64,000 bases of DNA, taken from the NCBI GenBank assembly GCA_963771465.1, contig CAVYTU010000014.1, positions 320,001 through 384,000 on the forward strand, given 5' to 3'. The notes below the pieces were generated by a model. It saw only the letters and a program-made list of their open reading frames with translations. It had not been told where the DNA came from and ran no database searches. The translations under genes were made by a program, and so were the position numbers. Source of the stretch: an uncultured delta proteobacterium. GTDB taxonomy: Bacteria; Desulfobacterota; Binatia; UBA9968. Of this stretch, positions 37,789 through 47,057 are shown one piece after another. Position 1 is the stretch's first letter. Every line of letters begins with the position of its first letter.

Positions 37789-38967
37789 ATGGCGTTAATC
37801 GATAACCTAAACACGATTCGCATCGATCATATCGGCAGCCTCGTTCGTCCGGCAAGACTCAAAGACGTCTTCGCCCACTCCGATCGCGGCCAAGCAGCGA
37901 AGCAGGAATTGTCGCAGGCGCAAGACGAAGCGATCCGCGATGTCATTGCCAAGCAAGAGGCTCACGGCTTCCCGGTCGTCACCGACGGTGAGTTTCGCCG
38001 CCACAGCTTCCAAGAAAGCTTTTCCGAGTGCGTCACCGGATTTGATGTGCCAAAGAATATCGGCCTCTACTATGAAAAGCGCGATTTGAATGAGAACCCG
38101 CTCGAGCGCGCCGAGCAAAACTTCGAAGAAGCCGGCCCAGCGATCATCACCCGGCGCGGCGCGTTCGAACGCTTGAAACTCGTACGCAACCTGACGCTAG
38201 AAGAATACCGCTACGCAGCGAGCGTCGCCAAAGTTCCGGCCAAAGTCACGCTGCTTGGTCCCGATCGTATCGCCCAGCGCTTCAAGTGGGAAGCGTCGTT
38301 GAATGTTTACAAAGGCCTCGACGATTTTGTCGAACATCTCGTCGTAATCGAGCGGCAGATCATCGCGGAATTGGTAAAAGCCGGCTGCAAGTACATTCAA
38401 ATCGATGCCCCCGGTTACACCGCCTACGTCGATAAAGTTTCGCTGGAAAGAATGCGCTCCCGTGGCGAAGATCCCGAGCGCAATCTCCAACGCTCCATCG
38501 ACGCGGACAATGCCATAATCGCAGGCTTCTCCGATGTGACCTTCGGCATCCATATTTGCCGCGGCAACGCCAGAACCATCGATCCCCAAACCGGCAAACT
38601 CGTCCCCCAATGGCATCGCGAAGGCTCCTATGACGCCATCGCCGAAAAACTTTTTAACACACTCAAGCACCAACGTTTGCTGCTGGAATACGACAGCGAC
38701 CGCGCCGGCAGTTTTGAGCCGCTGCGTCTGGTTCCAAAAGATAAAATTGTCGTCCTCGGTTTGGTCTCGACCAAGAACTCCGACATGGAAAGCGTCGACG
38801 CTTTAAAGCGCCGCATCGATCAAGCCAGCAAATATCTGCCCGTCAATCAACTCGCGTTGAGTCCGCAATGTGGCTTCGGCGGCATTGATTCGAAAGTGTT
38901 GAGCGAAGATGAGATGTGGCGAAAGCTGGATACGATCGTCGAGACGGTAAAGCAGGTGTGGAATTGA
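37789..38967 (+). CDS. Cobalamin-independent methionine synthase II (MetE C-terminal-like) family protein
   Basis: DHIGSL.RP, TDGEFRR, HICRGN, LEYD..R.G, LSPQCGF. Confidence 0.88.
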   Translation: MALIDNLNTIRIDHIGSLVRPARLKDVFAHSDRGQAAKQELSQAQDEAIRDVIAKQEAHGFPVVTDGEFRRHSFQESFSECVTGFDVPKNIGLYYEKRDLNENPLERAEQNFEEAGPAIITRRGAFERLKLVRNLTLEEYRYAASVAKVPAKVTLLGPDRIAQRFKWEASLNVYKGLDDFVEHLVVIERQIIAELVKAGCKYIQIDAPGYTAYVDKVSLERMRSRGEDPERNLQRSIDADNAIIAGFSDVTFGIHICRGNARTIDPQTGKLVPQWHREGSYDAIAEKLFNTLKHQRLLLEYDSDRAGSFEPLRLVPKDKIVVLGLVSTKNSDMESVDALKRRIDQASKYLPVNQLALSPQCGFGGIDSKVLSEDEMWRKLDTIVETVKQVWN

Positions 38968-38997
38968 CGACGTCGAACGCGGCCTCGATGCCGCAAA

Positions 38998-39299
38998 TTA
39001 GCAACAGCCTGGTGGAGTAGGAATCTGCGTTTTGCTGGCGTATCCAATGACAAAAAAAAGCTCGGCAAAACGTTACAAAGTAGCTGGACTAAATAGACGC
39101 GACGTTGAGATGATGAGAGAGAGTTGACAAAGAGATTCGCAAATAGCGAGAAGCCAGTTAGTAAAATAACCCCGATCGAGAATATTCCCCAAAAGAATAA
39201 AATCGACGGTGAGATATTCCCGAACATTCCCGAAAATAATAATGAACCAAGAATACCGAACGCACATAATGCGTATTCATGAACGGTTATCTTCTGCAC
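38998..39299 (-). CDS. Small AT-rich hypothetical membrane protein (3' end uncertain)
   Basis: About 3 hydrophobic segments. As sequenced the ORF runs to 38847, inside the convergent gene; one extra T in the T8 run would end it at 38998. Confidence 0.35.
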
Positions 39300-39321
39300 A
39301 TTTCTAATTCCAACCCTGTTT

Positions 39322-39604
39322 TCAACTATCCGGCCTCGCGCTACTCAACCACTCCTCATGCACATCGACCCAGATCGTATCCGTATCATGGCAGGTCGAC
39401 ACTTCGCTCAAGATCGAATTTAACAGTGTAGAGCGGCTTATGGATGCCGCGGTGATCTCTGATATTTTCGAGGACTCCGTGGACTAGGCCGATGACGCCG
39501 CGTTTGCCGCGTATATAACGTGGCGTGCGCGGGTTGCCGGTGGGATTTTCGTGGGCGACCATGACGGCGTCGCCGATTTTGTATTTGCTAATCGTGTCGC
39601 TCAT
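39322..39604 (-). CDS. Nitrile hydratase beta C-terminal / thiocyanate hydrolase alpha-like SH3 subunit (frameshifted near 39411)
   Basis: Y.IGD.V.V..P.GNPRTPRYIRGKRG..HG..PLYTV.F; removing one base continues as SEVSTCHDTDTIWVDVHEEWL to a stop at 39322. Confidence 0.8.
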
Positions 39605-39612
39605 AACAATTC

Positions 39613-40686
39613 TCAATCGGGCCGCACGCGCGGCATCTCAGCTTCGACGTGGGCGGCTTCTCGCTCGCGTAACTGCGAGGGTTCCAACGCGTAGCCCGCG
39701 CCAATCAAACTGTCGACGGTGACGAGCTTGGCCAATTCTGGTTCAGACATTCCTTCGGTGCCTTCGGGACGCTGCGGCAGGACGAAGTAGCGCACGTCGG
39801 AGGTGCTGTCCCACACTTGCAGCTCTTTGCCGGCGGGAATTTCTAGCTGAAACATGTCTCTGACGCAGGCGCGTGGGTTCTGCACGATGTTGGTCCGATA
39901 GCTTTCATGCTTGTACCACCACGGCGTGTCGCCGAGGATGTCATACGGATAACAGGAGCATAAGGTGCAGACGATGACATTGTGCAGCTTGTCGGTGTTC
40001 TCGACCACGACGAGTTTGCCGACTTTGCCTTGATGCACGCCCATATCTCTGAGCGCTTCCCGGCCAGTCGTAAGCAACGCCTGTTTAAAATCTGGATCGG
40101 TCCACGCCTTGGCAACGATCACGCCGCCGGACCAGGGACGCTCCTGGTGTAATTGTTTCCAGCGCTGTGCTAAATCGTCGCGCGTCGCCCAACCGCGCCT
40201 GATCAACGCCTGGACAAACACTTCGAGCAACTCCTGGTAATCTTTTAGATCTTGCTCGACGCCCGCCATGCGCTCTGCGAGCGCGCCGTGGTGTTCTTTC
40301 TTTTTGATCTTGAAAAAATCGTCGTAGTCGCCACGCTCCTTGCGGTTGTCCTCGGTCACCATGTCCATGCCTTCGACCGTGCGCGCGGAAACCAAAGCGA
40401 TGCCTTTGACGTATTCGTCAAGCCACTCTTCGAGATAGCGCACGCGCGCTTCGATGTTTTTCCCCTGGGGTCTAGCGATCTTAAAGAAGTGATCTTTCTT
40501 TTTAAGCGCGCTGCGCACCTTGAGCAGATCGTAAAACGTCACTACATTACGCCGCAGCAAGTAGAAAATACGCGGCTCGAAGCGTTTGGCGCGGTAATAT
40601 TCCAAATCTTCTTCGACGGCTTTGATATGCGCGAGGTAATCGTGCATATGGCCTTCGAACGGTTTGTGTCCGTGCTTTCCCGACAT
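39613..40686 (-). CDS. Co-type nitrile hydratase alpha / thiocyanate hydrolase gamma-like subunit with long N-terminal extension
   Basis: VAKAWTDPDFK, VVENT..HNVIVCTLCSCYP, WYK..YR, DSTSDVRYFVLPQRP.GTEG. Confidence 0.92.
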   Translation of the reverse strand: MSGKHGHKPFEGHMHDYLAHIKAVEEDLEYYRAKRFEPRIFYLLRRNVVTFYDLLKVRSALKKKDHFFKIARPQGKNIEARVRYLEEWLDEYVKGIALVSARTVEGMDMVTEDNRKERGDYDDFFKIKKKEHHGALAERMAGVEQDLKDYQELLEVFVQALIRRGWATRDDLAQRWKQLHQERPWSGGVIVAKAWTDPDFKQALLTTGREALRDMGVHQGKVGKLVVVENTDKLHNVIVCTLCSCYPYDILGDTPWWYKHESYRTNIVQNPRACVRDMFQLEIPAGKELQVWDSTSDVRYFVLPQRPEGTEGMSEPELAKLVTVDSLIGAGYALEPSQLREREAAHVEAEMPRVRPD

Positions 40687-40710
40687 CGGATTTCCTCCAA
40701 ATATATCCCG

Positions 40711-42426
40711 TCAATGGGTGTCGAATATTTCTTGATATTGCTTGAGCTTCGCTTGTGTCGCGTCCGTTTCCGCCTGGATCGGATTGGCCGGATCGAGCGC
40801 CGGCGGCAAGCAACCGAGCTTCATCAAGCACGCCATCAATAACAGCCGCGCTTTGGTCGCCGTCAGATTGCTACCGGCGATCGCCAGCGGATCGCGCGTC
40901 GGATCAACGAAGCCGCCGGCATTGCCGCGGCCGACTTTGACCACAGGCATACCGCTAAACGTCGCGCGTTTGAGCGCCGCATCGACGGCATTGCTCATGG
41001 CGCCGAAGGGCGCCGAGCCTTCAGCGACAAAGCCGGCGAGCGGCGCGGCGCGCAAATTATTTTCGATGCGCGCGAGTATATCGACTTCGCTGTTGGCGTC
41101 GCCAGAAGTATCCTCAGGCAAGTAGCGCGCATGTTTGACGATTGTCACCTTTGGAATGGCGGTGGCCAGCAGATTCCCGTCGGCGCCTTTGACCGCCACA
41201 GCGATCGCCCCAGCCTTTGACTCTTGGACCCTTGAACCTTGAACGCTGCTCGGTAGCTGCGTCACATTGACGGCAGAATCGTAGGTATGCCGTTTGATCG
41301 TCTTGAACGAAAACTGCGGCGCACCCGGATGACCTATTCTGCCGATGATGCCGCCATGGCCGCCGGTAGCCACATAGCCGCCGGGGCGCGCGTCGGCTTT
41401 TTGCACGTCGCGCGAAGTAAATATCTGCTCGTCGAGTATGGCAACGGCGCCGATGCAATCCCGGCCGTTTTCATCGGCCCAAATTTTCGATGCGATGTAG
41501 TCGACGGAGTCGACGATGTTGCGATCGCCGTCGTTGCCGATGGCGCCGTGGGGGCGCTGCGAGGAGTTGCCGGCAATCGGCACCGTTGTGTCGATCAGGA
41601 GATTCAGCCAATACGTGGTCTCCTCCACAAACGGGCTACCTTCGAGCCAGATCGCGCCGAGATATTTGCCGCTGCCGAGTGCGCGCTGGACGACGTTAGT
41701 GAGGCGCGCCAGCGCCGCCATCGGCGGCTCCTTGCGAAGATATCCGGGACGATAGGGGAAAAAATCCGTGCCGCGAACTTCCGGTGCGATATCGCCGTCA
41801 CCGATATCGGTGCGCTCGCCCGCGCTTCTCCCCTTTGTATAACCGCCCGACGGCAGAGCGCGATAGAAATCGAAATCGGCCTTTGCGGTTAGCAAACAGC
41901 CCACCCCTTCGTCGGAAATCCCCAAGCGGTCGATCTCTTCGAATAAACGCGAGCCGTCGGGGAAAAACGGCACCCGGGTCAACTCTGCCGGCGCATTTTT
42001 TTCCGCCCCGTCGGTCTCCCAAGGCTGGCCGCTGGCTTGGCGCGCCATATAGGGCAACGGATACAAACCATCTTCAGGCTGGAGCGTGATTTCATAAACG
42101 GGTTTGTCTTGTGGACCGGTTGGCTCTTTGTGAAAAGCGCCGGTTGAATCGAGATAGCCGTCAGGCGGCGCGTAGAGCTCGGCGTGATCCTTCTCCAGCG
42201 GATGCGCGCTGAACCGTTCGACGTAAATCGTCACCGGCGCCGCTAATCGCTGCGCGCGCAGCACATCGAAACGCAGCGGCGTGCCATCTTTGTTGGTGCG
42301 AGCGGGCAATCCATATTTCGCGCGCGCCTTGTTGCTCGTCACCAGTGGCTCGCTGTTTTGAATCGTCGCCGTCGGTCCGGAAAAGACCGCGATGCACGGT
42401 TTCGCGTTGCTCCGCGTATCAGCCAC
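40711..42426 (-). CDS. Divergent asparaginase/glutaminase-fold protein
   Basis: SGPTATI (GGTI-like), EGSPFVEET (HGTDTxEET-like), SQRP..DG.RN..D, RDVQK, G.PVV.V.R, L...KAR.LLM..L, Q.IFD.H. Confidence 0.8.
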   Translation of the reverse strand: MADTRSNAKPCIAVFSGPTATIQNSEPLVTSNKARAKYGLPARTNKDGTPLRFDVLRAQRLAAPVTIYVERFSAHPLEKDHAELYAPPDGYLDSTGAFHKEPTGPQDKPVYEITLQPEDGLYPLPYMARQASGQPWETDGAEKNAPAELTRVPFFPDGSRLFEEIDRLGISDEGVGCLLTAKADFDFYRALPSGGYTKGRSAGERTDIGDGDIAPEVRGTDFFPYRPGYLRKEPPMAALARLTNVVQRALGSGKYLGAIWLEGSPFVEETTYWLNLLIDTTVPIAGNSSQRPHGAIGNDGDRNIVDSVDYIASKIWADENGRDCIGAVAILDEQIFTSRDVQKADARPGGYVATGGHGGIIGRIGHPGAPQFSFKTIKRHTYDSAVNVTQLPSSVQGSRVQESKAGAIAVAVKGADGNLLATAIPKVTIVKHARYLPEDTSGDANSEVDILARIENNLRAAPLAGFVAEGSAPFGAMSNAVDAALKRATFSGMPVVKVGRGNAGGFVDPTRDPLAIAGSNLTATKARLLLMACLMKLGCLPPALDPANPIQAETDATQAKLKQYQEIFDTH

Positions 42427-42468
42427 AATGACCTCGCCGCGCTAGAATATTGAAATCGTCTATGGAAT

Positions 42469-43047
42469 TTATTTCAACTCGTACGGCAGCTGCTTCGGAC
42501 CGTAACCTTGCCAGTACTTGTTGGTCGTCGGATCGTAGCGCCCCTGGAGAAAACCGCCGGCTTTCTCAGCGCGCACGATGATCGCCACCGTCCGCTCATC
42601 GCCGCTCTCTTCGGCATGGATTGCGTAGGGCGGCACGAGATCGATTTTACCCGCGCCGACTTTGACGTTTACCGACTTGCGCACTTCAGCGTAGTCGGGT
42701 TTCGACCGGTCGTCGACCCGCTCGTAACGTGCGATCGACTCGGTGCCGTCGAGCACGCCATAGAGCGTCCAGTTGTGCGCGTGGTCGTGGATCGCGGTGC
42801 GCGTGTGCGGCGCTTTGATCAGGCCGTTGATGACAAACTTATAATCGGGATCTTCGTAGAAAAGTAAATTCTCGGCGCGCTCGGCGCCTTGAGAGCAGTC
42901 GGGCCAACGATTCGATTGTTCTTTGATCGATGGATCGGCGAGTAACTCTTGCAACAGCGGCGTCATCTTTTCCCACCGTTTGGCCGCATCTTTTTCCTCG
43001 GCGTGAAGCTGGCGCGCGGACGCGATGAATTTTTGCACGGCGGACAT
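42469..43047 (-). CDS. Cysteine-dioxygenase-like 3-His cupin
   Basis: T.IHDH..W..YGV..G.E...Y..P..IH; AGGAGG RBS. Confidence 0.75.
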   Translation of the reverse strand: MSAVQKFIASARQLHAEEKDAAKRWEKMTPLLQELLADPSIKEQSNRWPDCSQGAERAENLLFYEDPDYKFVINGLIKAPHTRTAIHDHAHNWTLYGVLDGTESIARYERVDDRSKPDYAEVRKSVNVKVGAGKIDLVPPYAIHAEESGDERTVAIIVRAEKAGGFLQGRYDPTTNKYWQGYGPKQLPYELK

Positions 43048-43163
43048 AAAATCCTCCTGACAGTACGAAGCCAATGGGTTATCGGATTATTATTCCGAGC
43101 GAGTAGTGCTCGTCAAGTCAGGTTTTGCGAGATTTCAGCTCTAAGAGTCCACGCGCCAAATCG

Positions 43164-43200
43164 AAAAGGCTCCGGCAGCGATCAACCGCCGGAGCCTTTT
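43164..43200. terminator. Intrinsic terminator after ahcY (bidirectional form)
   Basis: AAAAGGCTCCGGC-N-GCCGGAGCCTTTT. Confidence 0.85.
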
Positions 43201-43222
43201 ATGAGAATGATTGAATTTCGTC

Positions 43223-44497
<1,275 letters not shown>

Positions 44498-44655
44498 TCA
44501 CTTCCTCTCATCACGTTGCGTTAGATTAGTTTGAAATTGCCCGCTGGCATTTCTTGACTTGCAAAGAGCAGCTTAGAGCGTCATGCTGCTCCGAACTTTG
44601 TCCCTTTGGTGGTGAATAGAATTGACTGACTTTGCTGCTAGCTTCGCGCAAAACC

Positions 44656-45834
44656 TCAGACCCGCGCCGCCGCTTTCTTGAGATCAGCCGCTCGATCGGT
44701 CTTTTCCCAAGTAAACAAACCTTCTTCCGGCGCCCGGCCAAAGTGGCCATAGGCCGCCGTCGCACGGTAGATGGGCCGCTTCAGATCGAGGGTCTGAATG
44801 ATGCCTTTGGGGCTTAAATCGAAACTGTCCTGGACGATCTTAGCGATCTTGTCTTCGGGAATAGCCGCGGTGCCAAAGGTTTCGACGAGCACCGACACCG
44901 GCTGCGCCACGCCGATGACGTACGCAAGCTGGACTTCGCATCGCATGGCCAACTCCGCCGCAACGATATTCTTTGCGACGTAGCGCGCCATGTAGGCCGC
45001 GCTGCGATCGACCTTGGATGGATCTTTGCCGGAGAAAGCGCCGCCGCCGTGCCGACCCATGCCACCGTAGGTATCGACGATAATTTTGCGTCCCGTCAAA
45101 CCGCAATCGCCTTGCGGCCCGCCGACCACGAAACGGCCGGTTGGATTCACATGAAAGATCGTGTCTTTGTCGAGATACTCGGCCGGAATGACCGCCTTGA
45201 TGACGCCCTCAATGATCGTTTCGCGTAACTTAGCGTATTCGACATCGGCGCTGTGCTGGGTCGAGATCACGACGTTTTTGACTCTGACGGGTTTGCCGTC
45301 GCGATATTCGACGGTCACCTGTGACTTGCTATCAGGACGAAGAAAATAGGCTTCGCCGCCTTTGCGGACTTTCGCCAAATAGTGAACTAAGCTGTGCGCC
45401 ATCTGAATCGGAAACGGCATCAGTTCCGGCGTCTCGTCGCAGGCGTAGCCAAACATCATGCCCTGATCGCCGGCACCCTGTTCTTTGTGCAAGCCTTGGC
45501 CTTCGGTCACGCCCTGAGAAATATCCGGTGACTGTTGCTCGATGGCGGTGAGAATCGCGCAGGTATTGCCGTCAAATCCCATGGAGGAGTCGGTGTAACC
45601 GATCTCGCGCACGACTTCGCGAACGATATCAACATACGGGACTTTGGCACTGCTGGTAATTTCACCGGCAACCACCACCATGCCGGTTTTGGCCAAGCTC
45701 TCACAGGCCACTCGGCTGTTCGGGTCGCCGGCTAAATGAGCGTCGAGAATCGCGTCGGATACTTGGTCGCAAAGTTTGTCGGGATGACCTTCGGAAACCG
45801 ATTCGGACGTAAATAAAAAATCTTTACCAGCCAT
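44656..45834 (-). CDS. metK: S-adenosylmethionine synthetase
   Basis: [33 protein letters not shown]. Confidence 0.98.
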
Positions 45835-45910
45835 GAGCTGACCTCCAGTGGCGTCAAAATTCCGATTTTTAACCTGTCTTGTATAGCGGATCAGCTGGGG
45901 CGATTCAACC

Positions 45911-46186
45911 TTACTCGCTCTCGTTGAATCGATTGTCGAGCAACTTTTCGAGCGCTTTGACGACTTTTTCTGCGTCCTCGCCGTTGGCCTCGATGTGAAT
46001 CTTACTGCCCTGGGTCGCCGCCAGCGTTAACACTCCCATGATGCTGCGGCCGTCCGCCGTTTGACCGTCCTTGGAGACGCTCACTTGGGCGGAAAATTTG
46101 TTGACGGTTTGCACCAGCAGGGCCGCCGCGCGGGCATGTAAGCCGAGCCTATTTTTGATTTCAAGTTTTTTGACGATCTTGGCCAT
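45911..46186 (-). CDS. ptsH: Phosphocarrier HPr/NPr
   Basis: GLHARAA, SIMGVL.L. Confidence 0.92.
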
Positions 46187-46190
46187 AACC

Positions 46191-47057
46191 TCACCTGTCG
46201 ATATCCCGATGCTTGACGTGAATCCGTAAGCTGCCGCCGCCGAAGCGCTTCTGCAGCTCTTCCACCAGAGCCACGGAACGGTGCCGTCCTCCGGTGCAGC
46301 CCAGAGCTAAAGTCAGGCTGCTTTTGCCTTCGCGCTCGTAGAGCGGCAAGGTGAATTCCAAAAGCGCGTAGAGACGGTCGAGAAACGCGCGCGTCTCGGC
46401 GTTACCGAGAACGTACTCTTCGACTTCGTGCTCCAAACCGCTTTTGTGGCGCAGTTCGGCGACGAAGTAGGGATTGGGCAGAAAGCGCACGTCCAGGATA
46501 ATATCGGTGTCATGGGGAATGCCGAACTTGTAACCAAATGAGGTCAGAAATAGCGCCATGCGGCGCACCGACGGCGCTTCGCAAAACTGCTGCTCCATCT
46601 CGCGCTTGAGCTGGTGGACGTTAAAATCGCTGGTATCGATCACCTTATCCGCCAGCGCGCGGATCGATTCCAACGCTTTACGTTCCCAGGAAATACCGTC
46701 TTGAATCGATCCCTGGCGCGCCAGCGGGTGCGGCCGGCGTGTCTCGCTAAAACGACGCACCAGGACGTCATCGGAAGCGTCGAAGAAGAGCACCTGCACA
46801 TGGTGTCCCGCGGCGCGCAGTTCGCCGAGCACTTGGGGTAACGACTGCAAAAACTGGCTGCCGCGCAAATCGACGCCCAGGGCAACGCGCATGATGTCTT
46901 CCTGATAACCGTGGCAGAGCTCGACGAATTTAGGAATCAGCGGCGTGGGCAGATTATCGATGCAGAAAAAACCGTTGTCTTCGAGAGCGCGAATCGCGAA
47001 GCTCTTTCCGGAACCGGAAAGACCTGTGATGATGAAAATATCTAAGCCATCGGCCAT
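46191..47057 (-). CDS. rapZ: RNase adapter RapZ
   Basis: TGLSGSGKS, DNLP, ETRRPHP, DVRFLPNP, GCTGGRHRS. Confidence 0.96.
   Translation of the reverse strand: MADGLDIFIITGLSGSGKSFAIRALEDNGFFCIDNLPTPLIPKFVELCHGYQEDIMRVALGVDLRGSQFLQSLPQVLGELRAAGHHVQVLFFDASDDVLVRRFSETRRPHPLARQGSIQDGISWERKALESIRALADKVIDTSDFNVHQLKREMEQQFCEAPSVRRMALFLTSFGYKFGIPHDTDIILDVRFLPNPYFVAELRHKSGLEHEVEEYVLGNAETRAFLDRLYALLEFTLPLYEREGKSSLTLALGCTGGRHRSVALVEELQKRFGGGSLRIHVKHRDIDR

Follow-up and report, generated by a model that had tools for sequence, protein, structure and literature searches.

A candidate nitrile-processing gene cluster of uncultured Binatia that joins a re-built nitrile hydratase to an asparaginase-fold protein and a cupin

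What do a cupin, a long relative of the asparaginases and an unusually built nitrile hydratase (NHase) do side by side in the genome of an uncultured delta proteobacterium of the Binatia? We address this question in a stretch of 64,000 nucleotides of the assembly GCA_963771465.1 (contig CAVYTU010000014.1, positions 320,001 to 384,000 of the forward strand), hereafter the window, whose coordinates are used wherever no other locus is named. Four co-directional genes lie here on the minus strand, in the order cupin (42469..43047), asparaginase-like protein (40711..42426), NHase alpha fusion (39613..40686) and a small gene for the C-terminal domain of an NHase beta subunit, beta-C (39322..39604), between the terminator of ahcY and a convergent MetE-like gene. 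The initial annotation of this DNA had described four co-directional genes with gaps of approximately 42, 24 and 8 bp, and the gene coordinates confirm intergenic gaps of 42, 24 and 8 nt. We put a probability of about 0.5 on these genes serving one pathway, in which a Co-type hydratase of new build would produce an amide, the asparaginase-fold protein would split it, and the cupin would act on a thiol or related group of the same small molecule.

The proposal that the genes form an operon-like unit agrees with how they behave among relatives. When one genome per species was scanned, 65 loci were obtained, 46 of which (L001-L046; labelled Candidatus Binatia or, under older labels, delta proteobacterium or Syntrophobacter) hold the 357-amino-acid (aa) NHase type at 76-92% identity. 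The rest comprise 18 conventional alpha subunits (41-54% identity) and one weak match, and a cupin or asparaginase-like match was found in none of these 19 loci. Among the 46, counted for each gene over the loci with enough room to contain it, 37 of 38 have the asparaginase-like gene, 36 of 37 the cupin and all 42 beta-C, a single locus (L035) being the exception for both the asparaginase-like gene and the cupin. The flanks are less constant, with ahcY upstream in 23 of 30 loci with room and the MetE-like gene downstream in 25 of 35. Median identity to the window proteins is 83% for the NHase, 83% for the asparaginase-like protein, 86% for the cupin and 80% for beta-C, compared with 89% for AhcY and 94% for MetK; the cluster proteins come close to AhcY in conservation (median 83-86% versus 89%).

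The linkage also extends beyond the genus. All 24 other genomes of the genus hold the high-identity type, some of them cut by contig ends (the tally of kin genomes includes G1109, which is flagged as unpublished). The fused NHase type occurs in all five genomes of the sister family (f112), and a match starting before residue 110 in none of the 11 genomes of a third family (f113). In two of the f112 genomes (G1135 and G1137; loci L091 and L096) the four genes are still adjacent, with proteins 55-73% identical to those of the window, and follow the order metK, ahcY, asparaginase-like gene, NHase, beta-C, cupin, the cupin having moved from the 5' to the 3' end. Cupin orthologues (71-73% identical) are present in both f112 genomes that have the cluster, versus a best match of 57-58% in all three that do not. 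The initial annotation had looked to the conservation of the neighbours as the check on its proposal: they are indeed conserved beside the orthologous NHase clade, and are not conserved beside a paralogous clade, to which we return below.

The NHase gene encodes 357 aa, with an alpha domain at residues ~150-335 behind a helical N-terminal extension of 150 aa. Pfam NHase_alpha matches residues 153-330 with 210.1 bits (cut-off 27.2). The metal loop reads CTLCSC at residues 240-245 (CTLCSCY at 240-246), and C240, L242, C243, S244 and C245 are invariant in 67 aligned rows. The Thr of this loop and the Tyr that follows it are marks of Co-type NHases. The closest PDB chains are likewise Co-type alpha subunits (E 6.6e-57 to 1e-53), followed by Fe-type chains at ~1e-40 and thiocyanate hydrolase gamma at ~1e-34. 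In the AF2 model of the whole protein (mean pLDDT 78.9, pTM 0.63) the alpha domain superposes on 4ob1_A with a VIA Z of 24.1 and a root-mean-square deviation of 1.3 Å over 152 residues, and Foldseek with the whole model gave 39 matches at E <=0.001, all of them alpha or gamma chains and none a beta chain. An alpha-domain tree of 28 rows chosen from the alignment, plus the second alpha subunit of the genome, places all 19 fused sequences in one clade (support 100/99), separate from nine conventional ones.

The extension itself is modelled as helices at residues 17-45, 51-60, 78-100 and 136-163, with residues 102-125 disordered, and is conserved across the fused clade, including paralogues of 45% identity. 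It had no match in Pfam at E 10 and only a chance match in the PDB by phmmer, and comparison by hhalign with profiles of 13 beta subunits and four accessory proteins gave probabilities of at most 6%. It was found in 0 of 400 other genomes of a phylum-wide sample, a sparse draw that says little. In a VIA search of 48,161 chains, beta chains make up three of the top 14 rows (4fm4_B, Z 4.8; 2dd4_B, Z 4.4; 3qxe_B, Z 4.1), all three aligning to the extension over their N-terminal helical part with a Z below the noise level for helical models. Because values of 4.1-4.8 are common for such models, we take this likeness to beta chains as a hint and not as a finding. A search for short proteins made up of the extension alone yielded 89 matches, mostly fragments at 70-95% identity, and a few matches at 49-65% identity cover more than 90% of it (P0442, P0448, P0456 and P0463). 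Fused NHases of 45% identity (L092 7447-8508, L093 and L094) carry a His-rich insert inside the extension, which may have to do with the handling of metal. Remnants that hold the extension but no alpha domain occur at L097 6930-7488, joined directly to a beta-C gene, and at L098 899-1726, where the remnant runs into an unrelated C-terminal stretch that by eye is IspG-like, beside an ORF (open reading frame) that by eye is transposase-like; we take both as decayed copies.

The partner of this alpha fusion would be beta-C, which starts at ATG 39604, is ~93 aa long in relatives and is frameshifted in the window. Pfam NHase_beta_C recognises it with 45.3 bits (cut-off 27.7). When the complex of alpha fusion and beta-C was predicted with the pair from L002, it reached an ipSAE of 0.86, versus 0.06 for the best of three controls; this level is reached by 58 of 80 solved complexes and by two of 110 mismatched pairs. 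The three runs share at least 83% of their contacts, with a partner pLDDT of at least 78, and the predicted contacts set the invariant Arg26, Thr27, Pro28 and Tyr30 of beta-C against alpha residues 241-242 of the metal loop. Thus, beta-C is predicted to bind the alpha fusion, with the caveat that, NHase complexes being among the solved structures, the result may reflect likeness to these.

Some parts of an ordinary nitrile-converting system are missing. Searches with Pfam and NCBIfam found no amidase-signature amidase, NHase accessory protein or NHase_beta_N domain in the cluster, in line with the earlier statement that it lacks such an amidase, an NHase activator and a full-length beta subunit; the absence of the beta N-terminal domain also bears out the description of the NHase as re-architected. 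Across the genome (6.9 Mb in 19 contigs) the highest score for nitrile_acc (TIGR03889) is 21.1 bits, below the cut-off of 46, and comes from the beta-N gene in a second NHase locus (contig C2), the locus that contains the sole NHase_beta_N (PF21006) of the genome. That second NHase (L070 4823-6067) consists of a beta-N of 103 aa, a beta-C of 101 aa and an alpha subunit of 240 aa. It adjoins a PEPCK gene and is followed downstream by an ORF of 195 aa that matches no Pfam family; no cupin was found near it.

Compared with Co-type NHases of known structure (Pseudonocardia thermophila, 1ire and 4ob1; Bacillus, 2dpp), the cluster enzyme shares the CTLCSC loop, an alpha domain 40-48% identical in structural alignment and the Arg-x-Pro-x-Tyr stretch of beta-C, predicted at the active site. 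It differs in having neither a beta N-terminal domain nor an accessory protein, and in the clade-specific 150-aa extension of alpha. A separate small beta-C protein is also found in thiocyanate hydrolase (2dd4) and in the split-beta NHase of L070; both, however, keep a recognisable beta-N (PF21006, 77.7 bits in L070), whereas the cluster has no PF21006 match. Toyocamycin NHase is another three-subunit member of the family. The fused NHase of Monosiga brevicollis, in the accessible portions of its descriptions (PMC2603476, PMC3323583), likewise involves the alpha subunit, but joins a whole beta to alpha, whereas the cluster has alpha joined to a domain that looks unrelated, and beta-C as a protein of its own. 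Within the accessible portions of the literature searched, the NHase fusions found were only whole beta-alpha fusions of eukaryotes.

The second protein with a candidate role in the pathway is the asparaginase-superfamily protein, 571 aa long with a GTG start. The Pfam Asparaginase N-terminal domain matches it with 36 bits (cut-off 22.5) and Asparaginase_C with 30.1 bits, below its cut-off of 34.6. Its AF2 model (pLDDT 88.2, pTM 0.89) shows the two-domain fold of type II asparaginases: Foldseek aligned it whole-length with type II asparaginases and glutaminase-asparaginases (E 5.2e-17, TM (target) 0.69-0.76), in ~340 columns on targets of 303-330 residues. A conserved and largely beta-stranded insertion of ~200 aa (residues ~25-235) follows the first strand. 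The catalytic residues of E. coli type II L-asparaginase are Thr12, Thr89, Asp90 and Lys162. Across 50 rows of the family there is no variation at T21, N303 and K343 and almost none at G263, S264 and P265, Ser264 being the equivalent of Thr89. The protein thus resembles type II L-asparaginases in its two-domain fold and in the invariant Thr nucleophile position and Lys162 equivalent, and is unlike them in its insertion, in the lack of a signal peptide (none of the cluster proteins has one, as read from sequence) and in the HGTDT motif of the PDB alignments, which in this family reads EGSPx (Thr to Ser, Asp to Pro). Since T21, K343 and S264 are kept while HGTDT has become EGSPx, the family looks like an active Thr/Ser-Lys hydrolase that is not an orthodox asparaginase.

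Among 1.84 billion cluster representatives we found 1195 relatives of this protein at E <=0.001 and 217 at E <=1e-30, including ~20 full-length clusters at 44-56% identity; Devosia and Streptomyces are the named members. The family is present in four of the 301 Streptomyces genomes searched and in four of 401 genomes of the order Rhizobiales (the order of G002, a metagenome-assembled genome labelled Hyphomicrobiaceae). The sole annotated Streptomyces locus (L077 1603-9662, in G021) has the asparaginase-like gene in a phenazine-type set together with an amide-forming asparagine synthase, RidA, PhzA/B, a glyoxalase-fold gene, DUF4186, an O-methyltransferase, DUF488 and PhzF. The neighbour of the asparaginase-like gene in three of the four Rhizobiales loci (L083, L084 and L086) is a gene of the FmdA/AmdA family; an Opp/Dpp-type ABC transporter stands before it in two loci, and urease genes come after it in L086. 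These Streptomyces and Rhizobiales contexts are amide or nitrogen-scavenging settings and fit, without proving, an amidohydrolase able to serve behind a hydratase. Given such contexts of amide metabolism in loci without an NHase, the amidase role fits the asparaginase-fold protein, and we regard it as plausible but unproven.

The cupin (192 aa) belongs to the cysteine/thiol dioxygenase family and has the putative ligands His87, His89 and His144; an AGGAGG stands at 43058-43053, 5 nt 5' of its ATG. Its closest solved relative is mercaptosuccinate dioxygenase (MSDO, 8vni; E 4.9e-8), followed by chains of cysteine dioxygenase (CDO) type and of 3-mercaptopropionate dioxygenase. No Pfam family was found in it even at E 10, so neither CDO_I nor PCO_ADO, while the nearest Atlas clusters carry the name cysteine dioxygenase family. 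His87, His89 and His144 align with the MSDO iron ligands His93, His95 and His149, as these are named in the accessible part of a preprint (10.64898/2026.05.19.726356). With the thiol dioxygenases (8vni, CDO, 3-mercaptopropionate dioxygenase) the protein therefore shares the cupin fold and three aligned His ligands, and it differs from them in lacking the substrate-binding Arg, the Ser/His-His-Tyr motif and a CDO_I match. Two paralogues in the genome, 53% and 46% identical, lie on contigs C18 (L068 5461-6099) and C5 (L069 5346-5930), each beside a hydrolase and a second small Cupin_2 gene, the hydrolases being an Amidohydro_2 protein of 474 aa and a metallo-beta-lactamase-fold protein of 511 aa. 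This company of other hydrolases points to small-molecule work.

We therefore suggest, from the presence of these parts in one conserved cluster, how they might act together. The alpha fusion and beta-C would make up a cobalt-type NHase-family enzyme of new build, in which alpha's own N-terminal helical domain would take the position that the N-terminal half of beta has in ordinary enzymes, and in which beta, reduced to its C-terminal domain, would supply the conserved Arg at the metal site with its oxidised cysteines. This re-built hydratase would hydrate a C-N triple bond to an amide, and the asparaginase-fold protein, with Thr21, Ser264 and Lys343, would hydrolyse the amide to acid and ammonia, replacing the usual amidase-signature amidase. 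The 3-His cupin would act on the small molecule of the pathway, most likely by oxidising a thiol or other group on the substrate or product; we do not assign it a part in the maturation of the hydratase. A polar nitrile resembling an amino acid is the probable substrate.

A number of observations weigh against this reading. At the level of the single proteins, the equivalog models are not reached: TIGR01323 (NHase alpha) scores 205.3 on the alpha fusion, versus a cut-off of 249.85, TIGR03888 (NHase beta) 39.9 on beta-C, versus 152.2, and TIGR00520 56.5 on the asparaginase-like protein, versus 314.3. For the extension as a replacement of beta-N, the weak VIA rows (Z 4.1-4.8) are the only hint. 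The equivalent of Asp90 is lost in the asparaginase-like family, being Pro265 in at least 90% of the 50 rows. In the cupin, Gln64 and Arg66 of MSDO are replaced by Ala and Asn (Asn60), and the Ser/His-His-Tyr strand reads Ala-x-Ile-x-Arg, each according to a pairwise alignment only (the latter to 6xb9). In addition, and beyond what the initial annotation reported, one extra base at 39409/39410 breaks the beta-C frame and leads to a stop at 39386, while the conserved C-terminal end resumes in another frame up to the stop at 39322. The gene is open through this point, at ~93 aa, in all 42 related loci that hold it whole, and a DNA contig of a ~94%-alike strain does not have the extra base; the frameshift may have arisen in assembly or be a true lesion of the strain. 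Many single stops also occur inside matches in the long-read assemblies of relatives.

The partners are also found apart. Neither an NHase nor a cupin matches in any of the four Streptomyces loci of the asparaginase-like family, all four Rhizobiales loci lie away from any NHase, and three sister-family genomes hold the asparaginase-like gene (62-64% identical) away from the NHase, next to a dienelactone hydrolase in two cases and a Haem_oxygenas_2/TENA-family gene in the third. Conversely, the 45%-identical paralogous fused NHase of f112 (L092-L094) occurs with beta-C and without both partners, in varied neighbourhoods (LigB/Rieske/GST; Amidohydro_2 and MetE-like), and at the single locus L035/L095 an 80%-identical NHase with its beta-C, again without both partners, lies between a molybdopterin dehydrogenase operon and recQ; the best cupin match in that genome reaches no more than 58% identity. 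All of the linkage observed falls within a single order. On transcription, which counts for the proposal, two RNA libraries from two studies yielded contigs that match parts of the cupin gene with its leader, of the asparaginase-like gene and of the NHase gene, but none of them bridges a gene junction; such libraries can hold DNA, and gaps in their coverage are not evidence.

Because the linkage is confined to one order, shared descent explains part of it. Taken further, the genes could be adjacent by descent only, with a self-sufficient hydratase pair and with the cupin and the asparaginase-like enzyme at work in unrelated nitrogen or sulfur metabolism. All linked loci do come from two families of that order, and each partner family also occurs without the others; yet conservation is stricter for the cluster than for its flanks, the cluster survives internal rearrangement at 55-73% protein identity, and its intergenic gaps are short, with no internal terminators found within the cluster beyond chance expectation. 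We consider descent only an unlikely account that has to be taken seriously. More doubtful is a pathway for beta-cyanoalanine, the example given by the initial annotation, whereby cyanide fixed in this compound would pass through asparagine, made by the NHase, to aspartate and ammonia, released by the asparaginase-like enzyme. That an asparaginase-fold enzyme follows the hydratase and that the proteins have no signal peptide would suit such a route, and its logic from nitrile through Asn to Asp is known for NIT4-type nitrilases acting with an asparaginase on 3-cyanoalanine, according to the accessible part of PMC8567248. The NIT4 route as given there resembles the proposed one in going from nitrile through amide to acid and ammonia, and is unlike it in using a nitrilase-superfamily enzyme instead of a metallo-NHase and in having no cupin. 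The cluster, however, contains no beta-cyanoalanine synthase gene, the route leaves the cupin without a role, the protein is far from true asparaginases in its TIGR00520 score, its Pro at the Asp90 position and its 200-aa insertion, and its relatives occupy contexts unrelated to asparagine.

The cupin could instead be thought to mature the enzyme, as the initial annotation had considered, by converting the two cysteines at the active site of the hydratase into sulfinate and sulfenate, in place of the missing activator. The protein is a member of the thiol dioxygenase family with all three His ligands kept, the residues with which the solved enzyme binds the carboxylate of small substrates are missing from it, no accessory protein was found in the genome, and the linkage survives rearrangement in the sister family. 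The idea is weakened because hydratase pairs exist without a cupin: the fused NHase and beta-C have none beside them in the three paralogue loci and in L095 (best genome match 58%), nor is there one near the second NHase of the genome, and the two cupin paralogues, beside Amidohydro_2 and metallo-beta-lactamase-fold genes, point to work on small molecules. Moreover, no dedicated enzyme is held to be required for the oxidation of NHase cysteines. We thus give the maturase idea very little credence. Equally improbable, in our judgement, is a thiocyanate-hydrolase-like enzyme acting on inorganic thiocyanate. In thiocyanate hydrolase, too, beta is split into two proteins, its gamma chain is a structural match, and the extension has the beta chain of that enzyme among its weak matches. 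Against this, TIGR03887 (thiocyanate hydrolase gamma) scores 145.9 on the alpha fusion and stays below its cut-off of 291.45, NHase alpha scoring higher, and the hydrolysis of inorganic thiocyanate is not known to need an amidase.

Organic thiocyanates offer a further variant, derived purely from chemical logic, to which we attach a slim chance. Here the substrate would be an S-cyanylated thiol, e.g., S-cyano-cysteine formed by the attack of cyanide on disulfides. The hydratase would add water to R-S-C≡N to yield an S-carbamoyl thiol, whose cysteine form is isosteric with glutamine; the glutaminase/asparaginase-fold enzyme would release the thiol, CO2 and ammonia; and the 3-His cupin would turn the freed thiol into a sulfinate by dioxygenation. 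Of the schemes considered, only this one assigns a chemically necessary step to each of the three proteins, and it would account for the association of a thiol dioxygenase with a hydratase and a glutaminase-like hydrolase.

Returning to the single nitrile pathway of roughly even odds, it would matter for several reasons. NHases are major industrial catalysts, and their beta subunit largely sets the substrate pocket and the stability of the enzyme. If the reading is true, a clade without beta-N and with an alpha-borne helical domain would be a new scaffold, one that would test which parts of beta are really needed. An asparaginase-superfamily hydrolase in place of the amidase-signature partner would be new for nitrile metabolism, as would the steady company of a thiol-dioxygenase-like cupin. 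Both pairings would point to an unrecognised nitrile, perhaps sulfur-linked, that is important to an uncultured and widespread lineage of soil bacteria, whose relatives carry the label Candidatus Binatia. In the literature searched (Binatota, NHase with thiol dioxygenase or asparaginase, fusions), no description of such a cluster was found.

Upstream of the cluster, metK (45834..44656) and then ahcY (44491..43223) lie on the minus strand. The earlier suggestion that a terminator of ahcY bounds the cluster on this side holds: an intrinsic terminator (43158..43200, minus strand), with a 16-bp stem and a U-rich tail, stands directly after the ahcY stop, and its fold of -29.3 kcal/mol corresponds to a z of -3.09, one of 200 shuffles being equally stable. 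A sigma-70-like promoter match (43089..43116, minus strand; TTGACG, 16 nt, AATAAT; 10 of 12 matches) precedes the cupin and is a weak lead only, promoter-like sites at the locus being no commoner than chance (3 found versus 2.0 expected in shuffles). The 76-nt leader with the promoter-like site is replaced or missing, and thus not conserved, in related strains whose contigs, from two DNA runs, join 43047 directly to 43124. At the other end, no terminator was found 3' of beta-C (z -0.34), and an Rfam scan of 38500-46500 gave no match.

Downstream, a MetE-like gene of the cobalamin-independent synthase family (37789..38967, plus strand) converges on the cluster. A spacer of ~350 nt (38968-39321) of low G+C (0.456 in 39000-39499) separates it from beta-C, compared with ~40 nt for the same gap in L002. 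This spacer holds a 150-aa ORF (39299..38847) with a hydrophobic start, which is conserved only where it overlaps the MetE-like gene. At least seven further copies of the MetE-like gene, 33-53% identical, are present genome-wide, and one MetE-like copy also adjoins the paralogous fused NHase in L094.

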